Made by a program: the position numbers and the translations under genes
Sequence record: NC_104726.1
Direction: 5' to 3' (one strand)
Length of the DNA stretch: 64,000 bases
Source of the DNA: a phage
The notes under the pieces: generated by a model
What the model was told of the DNA's origin: nothing
Seen by the model: only the letters and a program-made list of their open reading frames with translations
Databases searched by the model: none
In this document: piece by piece, positions 14,203-56,878 of the stretch
How positions within the stretch are numbered: the first letter of the stretch is position 1
How the letters are laid out: every line of letters starts with the position of its first letter

Positions 14203-14328
14203 ATGTCATCTGGTGGCTTTAAAGTAAAAATTTGTAAACACTGCGGTTGTAAGTGCAATCTTCGTTGGTGCAAGGCACTGGACGATTTTATTTGGCATTG
14301 CCCTAAATGTGATGCGGAGTATCTATGA
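14203..14328 (+). CDS. small zinc-ribbon protein (41 aa)
   Basis: ATG after AAGGAG; CKHCGC...CPKCD; stop overlaps the nrdG ATG (ATGA). Confidence 0.35.
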   Translation: MSSGGFKVKICKHCGCKCNLRWCKALDDFIWHCPKCDAEYL

Positions 14329-30829: not shown

Positions 30830-31670
30830 CACACAATTAGCTGCCCGGCTAAAGTGCTGGAAGCACCTATAACACATCTTTCAACTAAATTTCCTACCAC
30901 CACAATCACTTACCTCCCACACATGACTGTTTGCTTGTTTAGTGAGCAGTCATGCCTTGACATTCTTGCCTATCCTGATAAAATTAAGTTCTTCTCTTTT
31001 CTTTTACCGAGTAATTCGGGTTTTCTGTTCTCTTCGGTTTGAAGGGGTATGGAGATACACCTGAGTGAACAGGGTGAACAACCGAACATTTGGCTATGGC
31101 ATTAGCATGGCGAAGCGGACGGGTGACGAAAGAGGGGCCGGAGGACACCAGTCACTGCCATATGATATATGGGTGATAACCTGAAGAGTCTGAATAAGTG
31201 TTTAAGTACCAGTCAGAGGAAAAGGTGAATGGTAGCCGAAGGGGGAGGGGGGTTTCTTGTATCTTTAATTTGTATATTATGTATACACTCGTAAACCAAT
31301 CTCATCTGAATCTGTTTACCACACAAAGTAGATAGGGACAAATATCACCTATTAAACTTGAATTATTTATAGAAAATACCACAACACCACTTAAGTCTTT
31401 GATTTTACACACAAATCCTACAGATATTCAACCTCTATATTTAACATATTCATAACATATTCCATACTCTACCTGTCTGATCAATTTACCCAACCACATC
31501 CTCCATATTTTCCCTGTCTGTACTACCCCTGCCCCGCCGGGAGTCCCGTCATATCTGGCTTTCCAGCAAATATCACACCCACAAATATCATTACCTGAAG
31601 AGGGTTTCATCCCATAATACCTGCCTTACCTGAAGAGCGCTTCATATACCCCGTAAATTTTTTAATTGAC

Positions 31671-31700
31671 CCCCTCCCCGCCGCCGGAGGGGTCGGCTTT
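31671..31700 (+). terminator. GC-rich hairpin, terminator-like
   Basis: CCCCTCC-CCGCCGCC-GGAGGGG followed by TCGGCTTTT. Confidence 0.3.
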
Positions 31701-32289
31701 TCCCACACAGGCCTGAAGAGTCAGCCAGAAATATCTGAACAGGTCCAGTTATACCACGATTTTGACCTGACCGACAGGAGTGCTGCCAGGCGGACGAAAT
31801 GGGAATCATTCTCATTCTTATAACAATTCTCAAATATCGAGGCAGTGAGGCAAATTAATAGGTGAGGCCGTTCACACAATGGCACAACATTTGCAACCTA
31901 TCTTGTGGGAGTGAATGAGAATACCTATCATTGTGAGAATAGTTATCATTACGGGCAATTTAACATAATACCCATTATGCGCACCACTGGCGATCCATAC
32001 AGGGATTGATAACATGAGTTACCGTTTACGCACATAACAATTATATTTCTTACTATTTGTGTGGGATATAGTTAGCAGCCAATAGATTAGATATTAACCT
32101 GCGGACTTCTGACCGTCCAGACGTCTAAACGCCCACACAACAAGGGTTATACATACACAACTGAATGTAAACAGGGCCGCAAAAATGCTACCATACCAGT
32201 TTGTAAATTTTCATGCAGCACTTGACAAAGAGGAGAAAAACTTGTCTGACACCTTATACACTTTCGACACAATAACGACTGTTATTATT

Positions 32290-32640
32290 TCATGTTTCAC
32301 TGTTCACGTATAGATTGTTCCCGCATAGACTGTTTACGCCTGGATAGTTTACACCTTAACTGTTTACACAGATAGGATAAGCCATGACATTCGTTTGCAT
32401 GAAAACAATTAGCAAGTTAACAATTAACAAGTTAATAATATATGACATAATATAAAAGCAGGGCAACTATTAGCAGATCTATAGTTGCCTTGCTTGTTAT
32501 GTCATGATTAACTGAATACAAGGCAACTATGATCTGATTAATAGATTGCAGACAAACTATCACGGGGGTGATGGTTACTGCTTTTATATTATGTCGCGAC
32601 TCCGTCGCGCCATGCCATTCGTTTGCATAGTTGCCTTATT
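32290..32640. repeat. iteron and nested-palindrome cluster in the non-coding region
   Basis: TGTTTAC-like iterons every 14-16 bp (32294-32368); GGCAACTAT/ATAGTTGCC inverted pairs; 18 bp inverted repeat 32444-32461 vs 32579-32596; direct repeat CCATTCGTTTGCAT at 32388 and 32614. Confidence 0.5.
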
Positions 32641-33242
32641 GTTACGAATAAAACAATTGCATTGTTAATGATTTCTTATCTTTCTCTTAGTCATCTAATG
32701 ATTACAGTCAGTATAGTTATGTACAGTAAACATTAGACGACTAAAGATTTCTCTGTTTATTATAACTTACCATTACAATTTCGGACTGTTTACCAAGAAT
32801 GTTGACACATAAGCTGATTTATGTTATGCAGTTTACACGAATAATTATTTTATGCAGGTATTGACTATTCCGTTATTCTATGGTTGGAATAAATACTTAG
32901 CAGACTATAGAATGGTGAGCGTACGTAAATTCTGAGATCTGGCGGCTATAGTTATACTCGATTTTTCACGTAGAACACGCTTTTGTGGTTGTGTAAGTGT
33001 ATGACTTATAAAGATTTTTAGTTGTTGACAAGACACTGAAGATATGCATCAGGTTAAATTTTGTGCAATAGCTGCATTACGTGCACTTTTGGGAGAGAAA
33101 ACGGGTAAAAATGGGCCTGCTACCACACAATGAAAGATTATGCAATAGTTATTTTCCATGTATATTTGTACAGTATGTGGAATTGATGGCTAGTCAATTA
33201 TTCCACTTGCCAGGTAGGGCCGTTTATGGTAGGAGAAGAGCA

Positions 33243-43207: not shown

Positions 43208-43405
43208 TTATTTTTTATTAAACCAGTGGTTGATCTGACCTTTTGTCAGGGCGCAACGGTTAAGCTGTTGCAGGGTATAGCTATGACCGCGACGAAATTT
43301 ATAAAGGCCTTGCCCGTTGTTGATGGTTACATCCACCCGGCAAATCACTTGATTGGTGACCACCTGGCGAGTGTTGCGACGTACTTTAATTCCGTAGGCG
43401 TTCAT
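43208..43405 (-). CDS. hypothetical small basic protein
   Basis: Track ORF, co-oriented. Confidence 0.3.
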   Translation of the reverse strand: MNAYGIKVRRNTRQVVTNQVICRVDVTINNGQGLYKFRRGHSYTLQQLNRCALTKGQINHWFNKK

Positions 43406-43483
43406 GATTTTTTATCCTCTCTGTTAATTGGTGTGGTGTTGTTCACCTTGCGAGGATAAGAATAACAAGAACTGTCCGAGCTG

Positions 43484-43666
43484 TCAACCATTAGTTAAAA
43501 TTATTTTTGGGTAGAATTCTCCAGCCGCCGCCCCTGCCAGGTTAACCATCATTTTTTCGTACTCTTCTTTATGTTCCAACGCTCCCGCCATAGCCTTTTC
43601 AACCAGGGCGATAGCCTCAGCGTCATTAATAGCTACATTTTCCAGGGGGATCATATTACCTTCCAT
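43484..43666 (-). CDS. hypothetical small protein
   Basis: GAGGAGG RBS 8 nt upstream on the minus strand. Confidence 0.35.
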   Translation of the reverse strand: MEGNMIPLENVAINDAEAIALVEKAMAGALEHKEEYEKMMVNLAGAAAGEFYPKIILTNG

Positions 43667-43696
43667 TTTTGTACCTCCTCTTCAATTGTTACCTAT

Positions 43697-43725
43697 CCTA
43701 TAGCATAGGCCCACCAGGTTTGCAA
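43697..43725 (-). promoter_or_regulatory. sigma70-like promoter candidate for the leftward array (TTGCAA-17-TATAGG)
   Basis: Minus-strand -35 at 43720-43725, -10 at 43697-43702, about 30 nt upstream of the 43666 start. Confidence 0.3.
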
Positions 43726-43879
43726 GCCTTCATTATCTCCTACCTGGTCAGTTAGGCCCTGCCAGGCTGGCCCCGCCAGGTTGCAGCGGTCAGCGCATCA
43801 GGTTAGAATTTTTTTTTTGAAAAGTGTTGACAGCGGCCCCGCCAGGTGGCAAAATATACCTATCGAAAGGACGGCAGGC

Positions 43880-44100
43880 ACCGGTGACGGGGGAGACAAC
43901 CACCGGGGATGGGCGCTGCATGAAATGAGAACGATTATCATTATCGTCTAAAAATTTATGCAAAAACTTCTTGCTTTCTTTGTCCTGTGTGTTACTATAA
44001 TAACAAGCCGGGGCAGTAGGGGCCGGGAGACAATCACCGGGCCTGCCCGTTATTCTGCAAACGAGAATGATTATCATTCAAAATTCTAAATGAGAACTCC
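43880..44100. repeat. two GC-rich direct repeats with an operator-like palindrome
   Basis: GGGAGACAACCACCGGGG...AAATGAGAACGATTATCATT (43891-43942) vs GGGAGACAATCACCGGG...AAACGAGAATGATTATCATT (44024-44079); palindrome GAATGAT-T-ATCATTC at 44064-44078. Confidence 0.45.
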
Positions 44101-44189
44101 TCGCATTTAATAAATTTAATTAGCACGCTAATTACCCTCCGTAACAATTTCCTATAAAATAGTATCCACTAAAATATTCCCATATAGAA

Positions 44190-44640
44190 ATTTTAAAAAT
44201 CCATTTCTGAAAACGAAAAATCGATTTCGTCCCCAAAAATTTCAGGCCAAGAGCCGGAGCGATTTCCAGAAAATCCGATTCAGAAAACGAAAAACAGATC
44301 AAGTACTGAGAAATTTATCGAGAAAAATTTTCAGAAAATCCAAGCCCTGAAATGAAAAGTAGATCGAGTACCTGGAAAGCTGCACCGCAACTTCAAGATA
44401 GTGGTTAGATTGTTACCATAGAAGGTCAAGGGTAAGTGGAGGAAGTTCTAGTAGAGGGAGGTTAGCATGTGTGGGAAATCTATAATGGTGGCCTGGAATA
44501 TGGTGCAAACGATAGGATGAGTTATTCAGCTTGTCGCGCCTACTCTGAAAAATCCATTTTAGTTTTCGATCCATTTTCTGATTTTCTAAGAATTTTAAAA
44601 TATCTGGCCCGGTGAAATATCAAAAGGAGGAAATCCATTT
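44190..44640. repeat. degenerate tandem repeats of about 65-72 bp, each with a GATC
   Basis: Three adjacent copies of AGAAAATCC...CTGAAAACGAAAAA..GATC.AGTAC (44196, 44268, 44333) plus AAATCCATTTTAG remnants at 44540 and 44611. Confidence 0.45.
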
Positions 44641-44683
44641 TAGAAATCCCCCTTATACTTGATATGCCAGGAATTTTCAAGTA

Positions 44684-45013
44684 TCAGCTGTCTTTGTTTT
44701 TAGGTTTGTACATGCGCAGAGGTATGGTCTTTGTAACATTCCATTTCCTCAACCCTTCCCAGCTCCAGTTGTGGGCGTGATACCCGGTTATGCATGCACT
44801 GCTGGCGTGATCATAAGCATAAGAGAACGCTATGTGCACCAGGTGGGGCCAGTCCTTCCACGGCTGTGGACCGTAAGCCTTTCTCCAACACCGACACAAA
44901 CTAATTGTCTCAAGAATAGGGAGAATAACAATTCCATATACCACCACCAGAATGGTCAGTGCAATGATTGTCAGGAACACATACCCTGCAGTTGAAATGA
45001 TGATCTCTGTCAT
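44684..45013 (-). CDS. membrane protein
   Basis: N-terminal hydrophobic helices. Confidence 0.4.
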   Translation of the reverse strand: MTEIIISTAGYVFLTIIALTILVVVYGIVILPILETISLCRCWRKAYGPQPWKDWPHLVHIAFSYAYDHASSACITGYHAHNWSWEGLRKWNVTKTIPLRMYKPKNKDS

Positions 45014-45213
45014 TTGTCGTCCCCTTTCTTACGAATATAGATGTGAGAGCCTGCCTGTATATAAATTTCTCGACCATCCTCTGCAAAGATATGAAATACA
45101 CGATCACCTTCGTACTCGATACGAGATATCTTCATAATGGTCTTTCCACCTGGGATACGGATCTCGTCCCCCACAGCGATGTTCCATGCAGATTTAAGCT
45201 TAAACATCTGCAC
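45010..45213 (-). CDS. hypothetical small protein
   Basis: Track ORF, ATGA-type overlap. Confidence 0.35.
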   Translation of the reverse strand: MQMFKLKSAWNIAVGDEIRIPGGKTIMKISRIEYEGDRVFHIFAEDGREIYIQAGSHIYIRKKGDDK

Positions 45214-52928: not shown

Positions 52929-53242
52929 TGATCGGTCTCCTTCTTGTTAAGTCTGAATACTGCAATAATAGCATTCCCAAGGTGCAGTGTCAAGTCATTT
53001 CCAAGATACCACAGCATCCCACGGTCATCTTTAATGAAAGGGTAACAATCTGGTGCCTTCCAGACATTGTACACTTTCCCAACCTGAAAGAAATCAGGCC
53101 CTGTTGGGATTTTGGTGCCAGGCCACACTTGAGATACCTGAACACACTCCACCTGCATAATAACAGGGATAGTCATGGATGTAAATGTTTTTGTTGGTTC
53201 TACTACCATAAAAGTCTCCTCTTTGCTCAACAACACTTCCAT
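52925..53242 (-). CDS. hypothetical protein (paralog group)
   Basis: FFQVGKVYNV...GMLWYLGNDL pattern; start taken at the internal Met to avoid overlap with the polymerase exon 2. Confidence 0.35.
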   Translation of the reverse strand: MEVLLSKEETFMVVEPTKTFTSMTIPVIMQVECVQVSQVWPGTKIPTGPDFFQVGKVYNVWKAPDCYPFIKDDRGMLWYLGNDLTLHLGNAIIAVFRLNKKETDQ

Positions 53243-53258
53243 GTGTTGATAGTTTACA

Positions 53259-53612
53259 TTAGTGACAATCACCCCAATTACGACCACACAAGTATTCACC
53301 TGTGATCTGGAACGGGACGCCCATCATTTTAGAAGCTTGCCAGAAGCAATGCACCACCATTTCACCCACAGGGCTCCAGATAAGTTCAAGCTTTCCGTCA
53401 TCATTCAGGATAGGATCGTACACCGTGTTTCCGTCTCTGTCAACCACTTCGTTTCCGTCCTCATCCTTGCGTGCCTTTTTGTACTTATGACCGTCGAACA
53501 CATGAAGTTTGGCCTCCTGCTCTGCCTTAAATGCTTCCAGTTCTTCGATTGTGTCGAAGGTGTACACAGTCTTATACTTCGGTGTGTCAGGGACTTGAAG
53601 TTGGTACTCATC
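53259..53612 (-). CDS. family A DNA polymerase, exon 2 (motif C and C-terminus)
   Basis: Begins DEYQLQV (completes the HDE motif when joined to exon 1); C-terminal ...VPFQITGEYLCGRNWGDCH resembles the Pol I terminus ...VPLLVEVGSGENWDQAH; intron upstream ends in G. Confidence 0.7.
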   Translation of the reverse strand, partial: DEYQLQVPDTPKYKTVYTFDTIEELEAFKAEQEAKLHVFDGHKYKKARKDEDGNEVVDRDGNTVYDPILNDDGKLELIWSPVGEMVVHCFWQASKMMGVPFQITGEYLCGRNWGDCH

Positions 53613-54514
53613 CAATAGTTCAGGTAGGTCGTTAAGCTACCCCGCACCATTACGTGCACAGCCATACAGTTTCCTGTATGGATCGGACTATCTCACTACC
53701 TTGTTACCAAGGCACCTCCCATTTCGACCGCACTTGCTGGCCTACTCTACTCGCTTCTTCGCACCAATTTATGTTGGCGCTATGCTTTCGATAGTCTCTG
53801 AACGTTACTACCAGGTGTAGTTTTTAGAGATATGTTTCCACTGTCTTCTTTGCTTTATGGCTCTGACCGTCTCATAAGGGTACCCAAGATCCCTAATCTC
53901 GCATTGTCGTAGACCACTCTGTAACAGTTCGCAAATCTCCGTTACCTCATCCTCGGTCAGCACAGCGTTGGCATTATACTCACCGACTGGCCTTACTCTG
54001 AGGTCATTATCATAAGCGTGTTTGATATTTCCCCCAGGGGTGGTCCATTCAAGGTTCCAGTATGCATTGTTGTATTTGTTTCCGTCCTTATGGTTCACCC
54101 ATGTGAGCCTTTCAGGATCAGGGTTTGATACAAAGCATTCGGCAACCAAGTGGTGGACACCTTTTGTGCACTGCTTCCCTTCGATGAACATGGTTACGCA
54201 AAGGTAACCTCGACCATTATCAAAACAAAACATTGTTGTATGATCACGTTTCGATAAAGGTATTGTTCCATCATCAAACACGGTATATCCGTGATAATCA
54301 ACTGATCTAGCCATTTTAACTACACCCCTTTAGTCTTCGCTGCGGATTAGCATATTGAGCTTTTACCATGTTTAGGTGTAAAAGTCAACTTAGCCTTCCC
54401 GTCAATTAAAGAGGTTTTCGACGTGCATCACTGCACGAAGCCACAATGTTATTTATGGTAATAGATAATACGACGGACACCTTCATCGTACCACCCACGC
54501 TTCACCATTTGGTG
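53613..54514 (-). other. group I intron in the DNA polymerase gene carrying an HNH endonuclease ORF
   Basis: On the minus strand: P-like AATTGACGGGAAGG (54406-54393), Q-like TAATCCGCAGCG (54349-54338), ORF, R-like GTTCAGAGACTATCG (53803-53784), S-like GAGATAGTCC (53694-53680); terminal G at 53613; exact 5' junction uncertain by one codon. Confidence 0.7.
53808..54314 (-). CDS. intron-encoded HNH homing endonuclease
   Basis: HHLVAECF...VNHKDGNKYNNAYWNLEWTTPGGN is a canonical HNH_3 motif; lies between the Q and R intron elements. Confidence 0.8.
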   Translation of the reverse strand: MARSVDYHGYTVFDDGTIPLSKRDHTTMFCFDNGRGYLCVTMFIEGKQCTKGVHHLVAECFVSNPDPERLTWVNHKDGNKYNNAYWNLEWTTPGGNIKHAYDNDLRVRPVGEYNANAVLTEDEVTEICELLQSGLRQCEIRDLGYPYETVRAIKQRRQWKHISKNYTW

Positions 54515-56878
54515 GTGCATGAGTATCCCAACTAAGTCACACAACGATGCACCACCATTCTGTTGGTATGCATTAAGTAAAGAGTGTTTAGATCGGGTCC
54601 AGATAGCATGACCATCAAAAGAGTAGATAAACTTCTTACCCGTTGCTTCCCAGAATTTCTCCAGATCTTCTTTACGCCCCTTAAGACCAGGGTTGGCATC
54701 CCAGAGTGCATCGATTACCCTTTGTCCCAACTCTGGAGAGATGTCCAGCATATCTGCAACTTTATCTTTTTGTGCCCCATACATAACCCCATACGTGATA
54801 GGTTTACCGTCGTTACGAGACACCTCTCTACCTGCTACTTTTGTATATGCCTCAGCATTGTTTTGGTGTGCGTCCCCGTTACTTACAACATCGTAATACA
54901 GGCCGTTGTCGAACTCAAAGGCACCCCAAGCCCCGATAAGCTGCTCTAAGTTGGACCCGTCAATACCGATCTCAAAGTATCCTGGAGGAACACCCCACAG
55001 ACTACGCATCTCTTTACCCATAACCACTTTAGGAGATGGTTTAGGCATGTTTGCACAAATGCTGTGTTTCTGTCTGGAAGTGTTTGTTAATCCGGAGCTT
55101 TTAGCAGGAAGCTTATGGTCAATCTTCAAGCGTGGGTGATTAAGAAGACCAGTATCAACCTTATCCTCCTTGATTGGATCAAGGACCGATCTGCGGTTTC
55201 GCAATGATAACCACAAGACGATATCTTTAGCCATCTCTCCGTTCAATTTTTCAAGATTCGGACATAGGTGTCCAAACGTATCTTTCAGTTGCGGAGAAGT
55301 AATAAGTGCCCTAGCTTTTCTACGTATTTTCCCGAATACTTCCTTTTTAATCCTTTCGGAGTTAGGAAAGCTTCGGAACTTGTGTACTGTTGTCTGAAAC
55401 TTAGCATCAGTTTTGTTCCAGAAGTTGATAATTAGGTCACAATACTCTGACTCTAAAAGCTCGTCCATATATGCATATACTCGTGCATCAACATCTGCAT
55501 CAGGTAAAGCTTTCTTCTTGCTGTCTTTAGTTACATCTTTAGTTCTCCACATTGTTGGGAGCCAACCAGCACTGATTAGGTATCGCTTGATGTCGTCCTG
55601 ATTGCTGATTTTCATAGGTATCTTGCAGTCAGGCATTCGCTTCTGCTGCAGATCACTTATTGCCTGATCCATCAGCTCTTTAGGTAAGGGTTGTGGTGTG
55701 GAGGTGCCCTTAATATAGCCTCTCAAGAAATCAGCCATCTTATCGGGGTCTTTGCAGCCCATCTCTTCACACCATTTTATCCCCATCTTGCTGACATCTC
55801 CTGTAGAGGTAAATGCTCGCTTAGGCGGGGCTTTGAACTCTAAAGCACTCATGTCCACAGGGTAGCCAAGCTTGTCTTTTAACCATTTCCAACCATTATT
55901 GGAGATTGTCCCATCCTGGTTAAACGGCTTTTCAGGGAACTTAGGCCGCTGAGACATTGATAACTCTTTTAAAGGAAGTTGTGGTTCAACACGATCAGCG
56001 ATCTCTTTCATCCACGCATCGCAGCGGTCACGTAAAGCAATAGCCCCATCTATGTCGAAATACACACCCTGTCGAGCCTGCAGCTCCATCAGGAAATGCT
56101 GCAGCATGCCTCGGCGTAATGCATTCTTCCAGGTAATCTTCTTGAACCCTTTCGGCTTCTCTTTGGCTGGATCGTACATAAAGTTCTGCATGTCAGATTT
56201 GCCGTAGAATACACCTTTTGATTCCGCTACCAGCTCTTTCCAGAGCAGCTCCTGGATGATAACGTCCTCGAATACACGATCAACATACTTCCACAGAGGT
56301 AAATTTCTCCAGTCATCAATTTTAACCTTCTGGTTTCCTAAAGCGTACCCCCACGCCATTAGGCCATGAGGACCTACCTGCTGCATACGTTTTGTAACAG
56401 GATTGTATACAGAATCAGGGCATCCTTTAGGTAACGGTCTGTCGGGCCATAGTATACGACTCATTGGCAGAGTGTCGAACAGGTTCACCTGATGATTATT
56501 GATTGTCCCCATACACTTGGGATCACGGAACATATCAAAATGAATACCAGACAGCTTCTCCATCAAGATAAAGTCATAACTAAAACAGTTGTGACAACTT
56601 AATGATGTGGGTGACCAATCGGAGTTCCCGGTTAACCACCATTCAAGCTGGCTGAAATCCGCAATACGGACAGAGCAGCTAGGATAGATATCTTGCTTTG
56701 CCAGCATAAATTGTTTTGCTTTTTCAACCTCCTCTTCACTGTAATGAGATCTATCATTGATAGGCAAAAACAACATAAAATTATTTTTATTCAACTCTTT
56801 AAACAGGCCACAATGGTAGTAAAGATCTTCCTCGTCCAGAAGACCTGAGGCCTCAAAGTCAAAATTCCACATACTCAT
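54515..56878 (-). CDS. family A DNA polymerase, exon 1 (3'-5' exo and polymerase motifs A/B)
   Basis: N-terminal FDFEASGL (exo I); motif B ...KPITYGVMYGAQ; frame runs on 21 codons into the intron after ...GILMH; AAGGAGA RBS. Confidence 0.85.

Follow-up and report, generated by a model that had tools for sequence, protein, structure and literature searches.

In the 64,000-nucleotide stretch of phage DNA analysed here (sequence record NC_104726.1; the whole stretch is called the window), positions 43667-44683 form an island that holds no plausible gene and is bounded by the start of one minus-strand open reading frame (ORF) at 43666 and the stop of another at 44684. An earlier reading of the bare letters, the original prediction, had described a non-coding island between two blocks of minus-strand genes, and that description holds. 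The best reading of the island, though a tentative one, is that it is a conserved gene-free control region of the phage chromosome, neither a gene nor a leftover. With the same reserve, it may be described as a cis-acting region where Fur, the iron sensor of the host, controls how far rightward transcription enters an array of protein-binding repeats. At the level of sequence, this reading is supported by the conservation of the island, the layout of its promoters, the identity of its palindrome as a predicted Fur box and an array of three repeat units.

The window belongs to a Vequintavirus, an rV5-like lytic myovirus of Escherichia coli. Over the island and its flanks, identity is 99.4% to Escherichia phage PDX and 86-98% to many further members of the genus, including FFH2, rV5 and phages of the BASEL collection. 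Genes lie on the plus strand left of about 30 kb and on the minus strand from 33 kb to the end, and the island breaks into this minus-strand arm. The DNA polymerase and primase/helicase genes are about 9 kb away, and the island lies downstream in their direction of transcription. No known function was recognised in the flanking proteins. Phages of the rV5 type are reported to encode no RNA polymerase and to rely on promoters of the sigma-70 type (PMC7344957; PMC3606486).

Conservation within the genus was assessed by aligning the island of 14 Vequintavirus genomes and counting invariant columns. Such columns make up 78-94% of the island core (about 43800-44300) and 92% of positions 44550-44599, compared with about 25% of flanking coding sequence, so the non-coding core is more strongly constrained than the adjacent genes. 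Hypervariable segments with 2-34% invariant columns (43700-43750 and 44385-44545) lie directly beside the core. The former is immediately upstream of the start of a small conserved gene (43484-43666), which thus has no evident conserved promoter of its own.

Beyond the genus, a sensitive blastn search finds window positions 43970-44123 kept at 71-88% identity in Seunavirus (GAP31, PVP-SE1 and 4MG), Mydovirus and related Klebsiella phages, Certrevirus (CB7) and Henunavirus (Hena1), as well as in Phapecoctavirus (ESCO13, anhysbys and ZCKP1), which belongs to a different subfamily. The similarity sets in exactly at the -35 element of the second promoter, P2 (blastn query 301, window 43970), and ends past the Fur boxes. 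The overall layout of the island is common to all relatives fetched, among them the named genera, viral contigs, metagenomes and one divergent relative, L132. Because the genes immediately flanking it differ between genera, the island has been retained while its neighbours change. In E. coli chromosomes and plasmids nothing similar to positions 43960-44140 was found, which argues that the module was not recently copied from the host. The original prediction had suggested conservation across related phages as a check, with absence of the repeats counting against it; the repeats are present in every relative examined.

The left half of the island (43827-44105) consists of two tandem copies of one unit, each made up of a sigma-70-type promoter, a G-rich leader of about 55-65 nucleotides (nt) and a palindrome (Table 1). 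Both promoters, P1 and P2, point rightward, opposite to all flanking genes. The T10 tract and the plus-strand TTGACA at 43827-43832, which had been noticed at the outset, are part of this arrangement; P2 is an addition, as are the Fur-box nature of the palindrome, the GGCCCCGCCAGGT motif and the 18-bp palindrome at 44117-44134. P1 scores 10/12 matches in a promoter scan and is nearly invariant in the 14 genomes. The layout of -35, spacer and -10 in P2 is kept in nine other phages, with 90% invariant columns within the genus, and is found in Seunavirus, Mydovirus, Certrevirus, Henunavirus and Phapecoctavirus; across genera this promoter has CTTGC or TTGAC as its -35, a spacer of 16-17 nt and TATTAT or TATAAT as its -10. 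The unit copy that contains P1 (P1 and 43862-43945) is additional in Vequintavirus and absent from the other genera. Both promoters are predicted, and are very probably real.

The GC-rich copies of the original prediction (43891-43942 and 44024-44079) prove to be 66% identical over about 65 nt, an alignment score reached by 0/2000 shuffles, and contain the near-perfect blocks GGGAGACAAYCACCGGG (16/17) and AAAYGAGAAYGATTATCATT (18/20). Across genera the leader consists of an invariant AGACAAWCACC (AGACAAYCACC in the form of the window), a conserved TGCCYG-YATTC and then an invariant AAATGAGAATGATTATCATTCAA. These conserved motifs would act either as DNA sites or as single-stranded RNA sequence. 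Of the two exact copies of the GGCCCCGCCAGGT motif, the second lies inside the P1 spacer; degenerate copies occur at 43530, 43708 and 43755, and the motif is also present twice in L132. A further element accompanies the promoter elsewhere: Seunavirus, Mydovirus, Certrevirus and Phapecoctavirus have a GTAAA-N5-GTAAA direct repeat shortly before the -35 (L007 1417-1434; L008 1418-1435; L010 1425-1442; L004 1472-1489). It matches the recognition consensus of CpxR-P, and would then add a second host stress regulator to the unit. The repeat is not found in the island of the window, where its sole match is at 14224.

The palindrome that closes each unit resembles the operator of Fur. Box 1 is the sole match within three mismatches of the 19-mer consensus in the window, where 0.02 would be expected by chance. 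The core of box 2 is invariant in all phages aligned, and in relatives it reads TGAGAAT-G-ATTATCA, matching the 7-1-7 Fur motif at 13/14 positions. The palindrome GAATGAT-T-ATCATTC (44065-44079), correctly placed by the original prediction, lies within this box. Relatives carry 1-4 boxes, arrayed with a regular spacing of 29 bp (GAP31 has 2, ESCO13 has 4 and CB7 has 3, with a fourth 37 bp on). As a control, the validated operator regions of fepA-fes, fepD-entS, fepB-entC, ryhB and fhuA in E. coli K-12 score 13-16/19 and 11-13/14; by these sequence scores, the phage boxes are at least as good as the five validated operators. A degenerate form of the 7-1-7 pattern has 10 matches in the window compared with 1.42 expected, of which 2 are in the island and 4 in a second gene-free region at 31800-31948. 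The palindromes have one base at their centre and their sequence is conserved, as suits a site on DNA bound by a protein dimer more than a hairpin in RNA. Fur probably binds the predicted boxes. The regulator would be that of the host: no Fur homologue is present in the window, and none was found in Vequintavirinae records. Translated, the box gives a short ORF (MRMIIIQ..., in several genera about 10 codons long; 44067-44093 in the window) with no convincing ribosome-binding site, which is probably a by-product of the AT-rich sequence of the box.

Further evidence comes from the distribution of the exact 19-mer of the relatives, from which the window's own boxes differ at a few positions each. 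In bacteria, this 19-mer (AATGAGAATGATTMTCATT) occurs at at least 120 loci in several phyla, 111/120 of them outside long ORFs. Among the matches listed, the TonB-receptor Plug domain (9), FUR (7), iron-type binding proteins (6), ZnuA (5), FeoB and FTR1 are over-represented in the 150 adjoining ORFs. Since its neighbours are enriched for genes of iron uptake and of FUR itself, the 19-mer represents a genuine operator signature of the Fur family.

The same 19-mer (searched as AATGARAATGATTMTCATT) is found in at least 120 diverse, unrelated viral contigs of IMG/VR (L012-L131); the chance expectation, a rough figure from base composition and an assumed collection size and not a computed value, is 2 to about 20. 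Among the matches listed, 124/128 distinct boxes are outside long ORFs, often in arrays such as the three copies 30 nt apart in L114. In a stricter promoter scan of these matches, 12/29 strong promoter-box pairs have the box start 10-14 nt after the -10, the classical operator position, and one group of contigs has the box 10-14 nt past a near-consensus TTGACA-17-TAAAAT promoter; many of the 12 pairs look related and are thus not independent. A laxer scan, which found promoter-like sites near 119/128 of the viral boxes, had no control, and the AT-rich box is expected to give chance matches, so it was set aside and not used. The presence of the exact box between genes in at least 120 unrelated viral contigs suggests that a link between iron sensing and phages may be general. 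One of the ORFs beside these boxes has a Tad2-like anti-defence domain. In L045, a 347-kb IMG/VR contig of jumbo-phage size, the 3ʹ half of the module (CACC..CTGCCTGCTATTCCACTAATGAGAATGATTATCATTCAC) directly follows an extended -10 promoter at 1230-1300. The unit may extend beyond Vequintavirinae and Phapecoctavirus.

In the mechanism proposed here, host sigma-70 polymerase would start at P1 and P2 and move rightward. With ample iron, Fur-Fe2+ bound to the boxes, about 60 bp past each start, would block or limit transcription into the repeat array; when iron is scarce, transcription would read through to it. Transcription into the array would then switch on a cis-acting function of the DNA, of which the initiation of replication seems the likeliest by analogy with promoter-dependent phage origins. 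Promoter firing, Fur binding in the infected cell, the gating of read-through and the role of the array are steps that we infer from the arrangement of sites.

Several observations weigh against this reading, some bearing on its promoters and boxes and others, taken up below, on an origin at the array. P2 has a weak -35 and scored below the threshold of the consensus promoter scan, and promoter-like sites in the region are not in excess (4, compared with 3.8 in shuffles). The 15/19 score of box 2 is not rare on its own, being reached by three stretches of the window, of which two lie elsewhere than in the island. Fur operators mostly overlap the promoter, whereas the box centres here lie at about +62 (P2) to about +75 (P1) from the predicted starts. 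Because the boxes are thus some 60-70 bp past the starts, the roadblock role is one that we infer. In addition, the ORFs beside the boxes of other viral contigs are mostly small and have no Pfam match; apart from one for the metal-uptake protein ZnuA, none is an iron gene.

Comparison with known Fur operators brings out the same likeness and the same difference. Like the enterobacterial boxes of ryhB, fepA-fes, fepD-entS, fepB-entC and fhuA, the phage boxes are close to the consensus (15-17/19 to GATAATGATAATCATTATC and 12-13/14 to TGATAAT-N-ATTATCA), and the half-site ATTCTCATT is shared with the operators of ryhB and fhuA. Unlike those boxes, which lie over the promoter, they are placed downstream of it, in gene-free DNA of a strictly lytic phage with no iron gene nearby, and in relatives they form the 29-bp arrays. 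Fur boxes have precedents on temperate phages, where the Stx1 promoter carries one for the host protein. In lambdoid coliphages, a host Fur box is found on the sitABCD cargo operon (PMC6969025). The island resembles these cases in having a host Fur operator on phage DNA, with phage-borne transcription under host iron control, but theirs serve cargo or virulence genes and the island box lies in a core gene-free region across lytic subfamilies. Full-text searches of a paper library on Fur and phages found no description of Fur boxes in core non-coding DNA of lytic phages, and searches on transcriptomes, origins and Fur boxes of the rV5 group yielded nothing relevant.

The boxes may also be read in ways that give Fur a different part. 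They could be a decoy with no local role, in which multiplying phage DNA soaks up host Fur and de-represses host iron uptake to the benefit of iron-requiring phage enzymes. The boxes are of high quality and come in arrays of varying number between genera, four further Fur-like boxes lie at 31800-31948, those of other viral contigs adjoin genes unrelated to iron, and multicopy boxes can de-repress the regulon in the Fur titration assay (PMC2189734). Against this, every genus keeps the first box at the same place relative to promoter and leader, as would suit a local role. Moreover, each genome offers only a handful of strong boxes to a protein as abundant as Fur. We consider a decoy improbable.

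Alternatively, box 2 could repress a leftward promoter for the genes left of the island, since it is flanked on the minus strand by TTGAAT (44076-44081) and CAGAAT (44052-44057) with an 18-bp spacer. Fur boxes are usually placed in this way, within the spacer of a promoter; the flanking hexamers ATTCAA and ATTCTG are conserved in most genera; and no conserved promoter is evident in the hypervariable sequence directly before the left gene block (43700-43750). However, this promoter matches at 8/12 positions only and has the 18-bp spacer; the critical A of its -10 is lost in Mydo and CB7 and its -35 in Phapecoctavirus; nothing like these hexamers is seen in copy 1; those upstream elements that are strongly conserved (the -35 and the GTAAA repeats) point rightward; and the hexamers may belong to an extended Fur site. 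A leftward promoter of this kind is even less credible than a decoy, and rightward gating by Fur is preferred to both.

To the right of the boxes lies the array into which P1 and P2 would read. The original prediction had placed three adjacent degenerate repeats here, and these are indeed present, now delimited at 44188-44378 with 65-73% identity between units. Each unit contains an A-tract/T-tract (AAAAATTTTTT in relatives), an AAAATCC or AAAAATACG motif and an end resembling GATCGAG(A/T)ACC, and 52-82% of its columns are invariant within the genus. Exactly three units are also found in GAP31, PVP-SE1, Mydo and Hena1, where they measure 62-67 nt at spacings of 67-69 and then 74-76 nt. In Phapecoctavirus, repeats of a different sequence occupy the same position. 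A swap of this kind would be expected where the protein that binds the repeats is encoded by the phage and evolves together with them, while the promoter and Fur box rely on host proteins and stay fixed. A search for GATCGAGTACC gave no other exact match in the window, so the units are not a general class of promoter. The three-unit array probably binds a protein, and for the right half of the island as a whole (44188-44643) binding of a phage protein is the most likely role.

Further right, AAAACCATTT and CAAATATC repeats, equivalents of the conserved right-hand block, can be seen by eye in GAP31, PVP-SE1, Mydo and CB7, and the motifs AAAAYCCATTT and (C/G)AAATATC recur in the right part of the window's island and in relatives. 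The AAATCCATTTTAG remnants noted earlier exist, at starts of 44549 and 44630 instead of 44540 and 44611. Between the boxes and the array, the 18-bp palindrome has a similar counterpart, TTAGTTAGCAGGCTAATTA, in L132. Tandem Repeats Finder missed the long degenerate repeats and reported a 12-nt fragment alone.

The emphasis of the original prediction on GATC and methylation is not borne out. A GATC had been assigned to every repeat and is found in 2/3 only (44297 and 44362), the first unit having ATCGAT at 44220. The 1017 nt of the island contain 3 GATC, below the window average of 5.2 per kb, so GATC is not a feature of the region. The unit ends of Hena1 carry CTCAAGTC and its units contain no GATC, which argues against a role of methylation. 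An element controlled by GATC and Dam was therefore rejected: there is no GATC cluster, and one repeat of the window, like those of Hena1, does without the site. What is notable about the island is its extreme conservation and its predicted Fur operators, not GATC. That it is no array of clustered regularly interspaced short palindromic repeats (CRISPR) was rightly stated, the repeats being 52-74 nt long, degenerate (65-73% identical) and adjacent, without spacers. Of the roles originally suggested, that of a regulatory array agrees well with a region that is non-coding, highly conserved and rich in promoter-like and operator-like sites.

Table 1. Features of the island, in window coordinates (the last row gives loci in relatives)
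Feature	Position	Strand	Description
Variable left spacer	43667-43764		directly upstream of minus-strand ORF start 43666; 2% invariant columns at 43700-43749; degenerate GGCCCNSCCAGG copies (repeat family D2)
TTGCAA in left spacer	43720-43725		aligns by eye with the -35 of a promoter found in other genera
Conserved GC-rich block	43765-43851	+	two exact GGCCCCGCCAGGT motifs, 43769-43781 and 43835-43847; conserved from about 43765 on
T10 tract	43809-43818	+	upstream of P1; length differs among relatives
Promoter P1 (predicted)	43827-43855	+	TTGACA, 17-nt spacer, CAAAAT preceded by TG; predicted start about 43862
Leader copy 1	43862-43925	+	G-rich; invariant GGGAGACAACCACCGGG at 43891-43907
Fur box 1 (predicted)	43926-43945 (19-mer 43927-43945)		GAGAACGATTATCATTATC; 17/19 of Fur consensus, 12/14 of TGATAAT-N-ATTATCA
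Promoter P2 (predicted)	43971-44001	+	TTGCTT 43971-43976; TACTAT 43993-43998 (16-nt spacer, TG before), overlapped by TATAAT 43996-44001; predicted start about 44007
Leader copy 2	44007-44061	+	G-rich; invariant GGGAGACAATCACCGGG at 44025-44041, then TGCCCGTTATTCTGCAAA
Fur box 2 (predicted)	44062-44081 (19-mer 44063-44081)		GAGAATGATTATCATTCAA; 15/19; contains CGAGAAT-G-ATTATCA (12/14) and GAATGAT-T-ATCATTC
Degenerate third box	44091-44105		TGAGAACTCCTCGCA; 29 bp after box 2; repeat family D3
18-bp palindrome	44117-44134		TAATTAGC-AC-GCTAATTA; nearly invariant within Vequintavirus; possible dimeric-protein site
Three tandem repeat units	44188-44378		starts 44188, 44262 and 44327; spacing 74 and 65 nt; units 65-74 bp; 35% G+C; A-tract/T-tract, AAAATCC and TCGAG(A/T)ACC-like end in each
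Hypervariable segment	44385-44544		22-34% invariant columns
Conserved right-hand block	44545-44643		AAAATCCATTTTAG 44549, GATCCATTTTC 44568, AAATATC 44598 and 44615, GAAATCCATTTTAG 44630
RNA candidate loci in relatives	L004 1385-1460; L008 1320-1405; L010 1325-1410; L006 1375-1455; L007 1320-1405

The array and the promoters that face it raise the question of whether the island is where replication begins. The primary origin of phage T7 consists of two tandem promoters followed by AT-rich DNA, and oriF and oriG of T4 combine a promoter with an unwinding element. Like these promoter-dependent origins, the island has tandem promoters that read into AT-rich, gene-free DNA, and the phage has a DNA polymerase of family-A type and a primase/helicase and relies on host RNA polymerase (PMC7344957); unlike the island, the T7 and T4 origins have neither long repeat units nor Fur boxes. 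In an origin in the strict sense, the repeats would bind a phage initiator, transcripts from the tandem promoters would serve for activation or priming, perhaps as R-loops to which the G-rich leader gives rise, and the Fur boxes would be accessory sites for a host factor. This version overlaps with Fur gating and differs in making the origin the primary claim.

Several features are consistent with it. The number and spacing of the three direct repeats are conserved across genera, and every unit has an A-tract/T-tract. At least two tandem promoters read into the array, counter to the flanking genes. Positions 44086-44378 are AT-rich (30-35% G+C), with no distinct unwinding element definable. 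The island shares its leftward arm with the DNA polymerase and primase/helicase genes and is kept where flanking genes change between genera. Moreover, the origin of rV5 itself could not be defined, and the genome map of that phage shows a single 'non-coding' box (PMC3606486).

Other features speak against an origin. Typical iterons are 17-22 bp long, far shorter than the 65-74 bp units. No DnaA or IHF sites are present in the island of the window, and none are conserved in relatives. No initiator gene is recognisable nearby among the flanking proteins examined. GC skew follows gene orientation only, as was also reported for rV5 (PMC3606486). Finally, the island has a rival at 31.1-33.1 kb, where a gene-free region containing 15-bp tandem repeats is at least as good a candidate.

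Iteron origins and GATC-rich sites are familiar from lambda ori and from P1 oriR and pac, whose units measure about 19 bp. The island shares with them direct-repeat arrays with A-tracts beside AT-rich DNA, but not the length of the units, and it has no adjacent initiator gene, no DnaA or IHF sites and no GATC cluster. On balance, it is possible but doubtful that the island is a replication origin, and the strict version must be called unlikely.

The rival region is the larger of the two gene-free regions (31150-33080), and plus- and minus-strand gene blocks converge there. It contains four Fur-like boxes as two pairs 18 bp apart (31800, 31818, 31916 and 31934), three copies of CAAATATCA (31339, 31567 and 31582), 15-bp tandem repeats at 32299-32369 and 32404-32439, and several inverted repeats. 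Judging from the positions of the reported changes in GC skew, the 'non-coding' box of the rV5 map appears to be this region.

The original prediction had also considered a small RNA locus. On this account, P1 and P2 would each yield a functional RNA, either Fur-responsive or longer and extending across the repeats, that acts in trans on host or phage targets. The predicted promoters are conserved and are followed by a conserved leader of about 55 nt, so that part of the proposal stands, and a separate structured RNA candidate with a promoter of its own is found in the same island of other genera. Like RyhB, PrrF and HrrF, the unit is short and non-coding, with its own promoter and a linked Fur box. 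However, the box of those RNAs overlaps the promoter and the RNA ends in a terminator, whereas in the island the box follows the leader, and neither a terminator nor support for structure nor similarity to E. coli was found. Specifically, no plus-strand intrinsic terminator is present in 43300-45100, and Rfam gave no match at the gathering threshold in the whole window and only chance-level hits at E up to 10 in the island. RNAalifold finds no helix in the leader, folds only the invariant palindrome as a hairpin and shows no covariation. GGCCTG is swapped for GGGGTG in close relatives with no compensating change opposite, and single-sequence folds are unremarkable (z-scores of -1.8 and -2.2). 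The single-base-centred palindromes, as noted, fit a protein site on DNA. Leader helices drawn by hand (GCGGG/CCYGY and CCGG/CCGG) were rejected, having no single register across genera and uncompensated swaps in their 3ʹ block. An RNA locus in the window is thus weakly supported, and we regard it as distinctly unlikely; gating of transcription by Fur remains the preferred account of the conserved promoters. Searches for tRNA and tmRNA (transfer-messenger RNA) found none.

The RNA candidate of the other genera is about 90 nt long and lies, behind its own sigma-70-type promoter, just upstream of the Fur-box module (Table 1). It consists of a CGCC/GGCG hairpin and a variable-length hairpin ACCGGGC/GCCTGGT, with a possible pseudoknot between a CCCC loop and GGGG that has co-changed to CCAA/TTGG in three phages. 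Of the structure proposed, 92.8% is paired; 4 pairs show compensatory changes, and its covariation score was reached by 0/500 shuffles. The candidate has no Rfam match, and a search of six relatives against Rfam at E up to 0.1 was negative. P1 looks by eye like the CTTGCAAACGGCCCCGGCCTGGGATATAT promoter of phage Mydo, and also like the promoter that drives this different RNA candidate in other genera. The window seems to retain only a degraded remnant of the candidate, at about 43755-43808. A repeated non-coding element in a related phage, with an anti-defence role, is known as pseudo-ToxI from phiTE, a Certrevirus of Pectobacterium. That the island corresponds to this locus was rejected: it adjoins homologues of phiTE_078/079, and neither the island nor contig L143 shows significant similarity to ToxI.

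Hidden small protein genes would be another way to account for conservation. ORFs of 43-95 amino acids exist, for example one of 95 amino acids on the minus strand (43790-44077) and one of 43 on the plus strand (43958-44089), and such ORFs are called hypothetical proteins in FFH2, ECML-10 and rV5. GenBank annotation is inconsistent, however, with none in phage navn or in the first half of the ECP2309 island. The invariant motif differs by 2 nt in length between genera (GAGACAAACACC compared with GAGTACAAAACACC), and the reading frame differs between them as well; the 95-amino-acid ORF has no Pfam match; and conservation is uniform across codon positions and above that of real nearby genes. Coding potential was accordingly rejected, since the frame is not conserved across genera and no Pfam match was found, and hidden genes are scarcely to be believed.

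Some observations concern the records themselves and more distant parts of the genome. In GenBank, 17 unannotated records (MG0656xx) named 'Campylobacter phage', with C. jejuni given as host, are 96-99% identical to positions 43400-44900 of the window and look mislabelled or contaminated. In phage WalterGehring, the DNA polymerase gene (L314 25220-28839, corresponding to about 53236-56855 of the window) is annotated as two joined pieces with a homing endonuclease gene inside, and a further endonuclease gene follows it. Further right, at about 59.7-63.1 kb in window coordinates, lie putative genes for a Dcm-like and an N6-adenine methyltransferase.

Fur boxes were already known on the cargo genes of temperate phages; here, a predicted operator of a host transcription factor lies in a control region of the phage, which may be an origin. 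A wider proposal, more speculative than the reading of the island itself, is that strictly lytic enterobacterial phages and many unrelated ones carry genuine host Fur operators in core gene-free regions and use them to sense iron, or to titrate Fur, and so time transcription into an array that starts replication. If this were true, Fur-based iron sensing would be a widespread and overlooked input to lytic phage programmes. For the rV5 group, the island is a concrete candidate for the replication origin. Phages of this group and related ones are often put forward for therapy and for the biocontrol of E. coli, Klebsiella, Salmonella, Cronobacter and Pectobacterium, hosts that are frequently found where iron is in short supply, for example in the gut, in blood or in plant tissue. 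If the most conserved non-coding DNA of these phages is wired to the iron sensor of the host, the supply of iron could alter how well they replicate.

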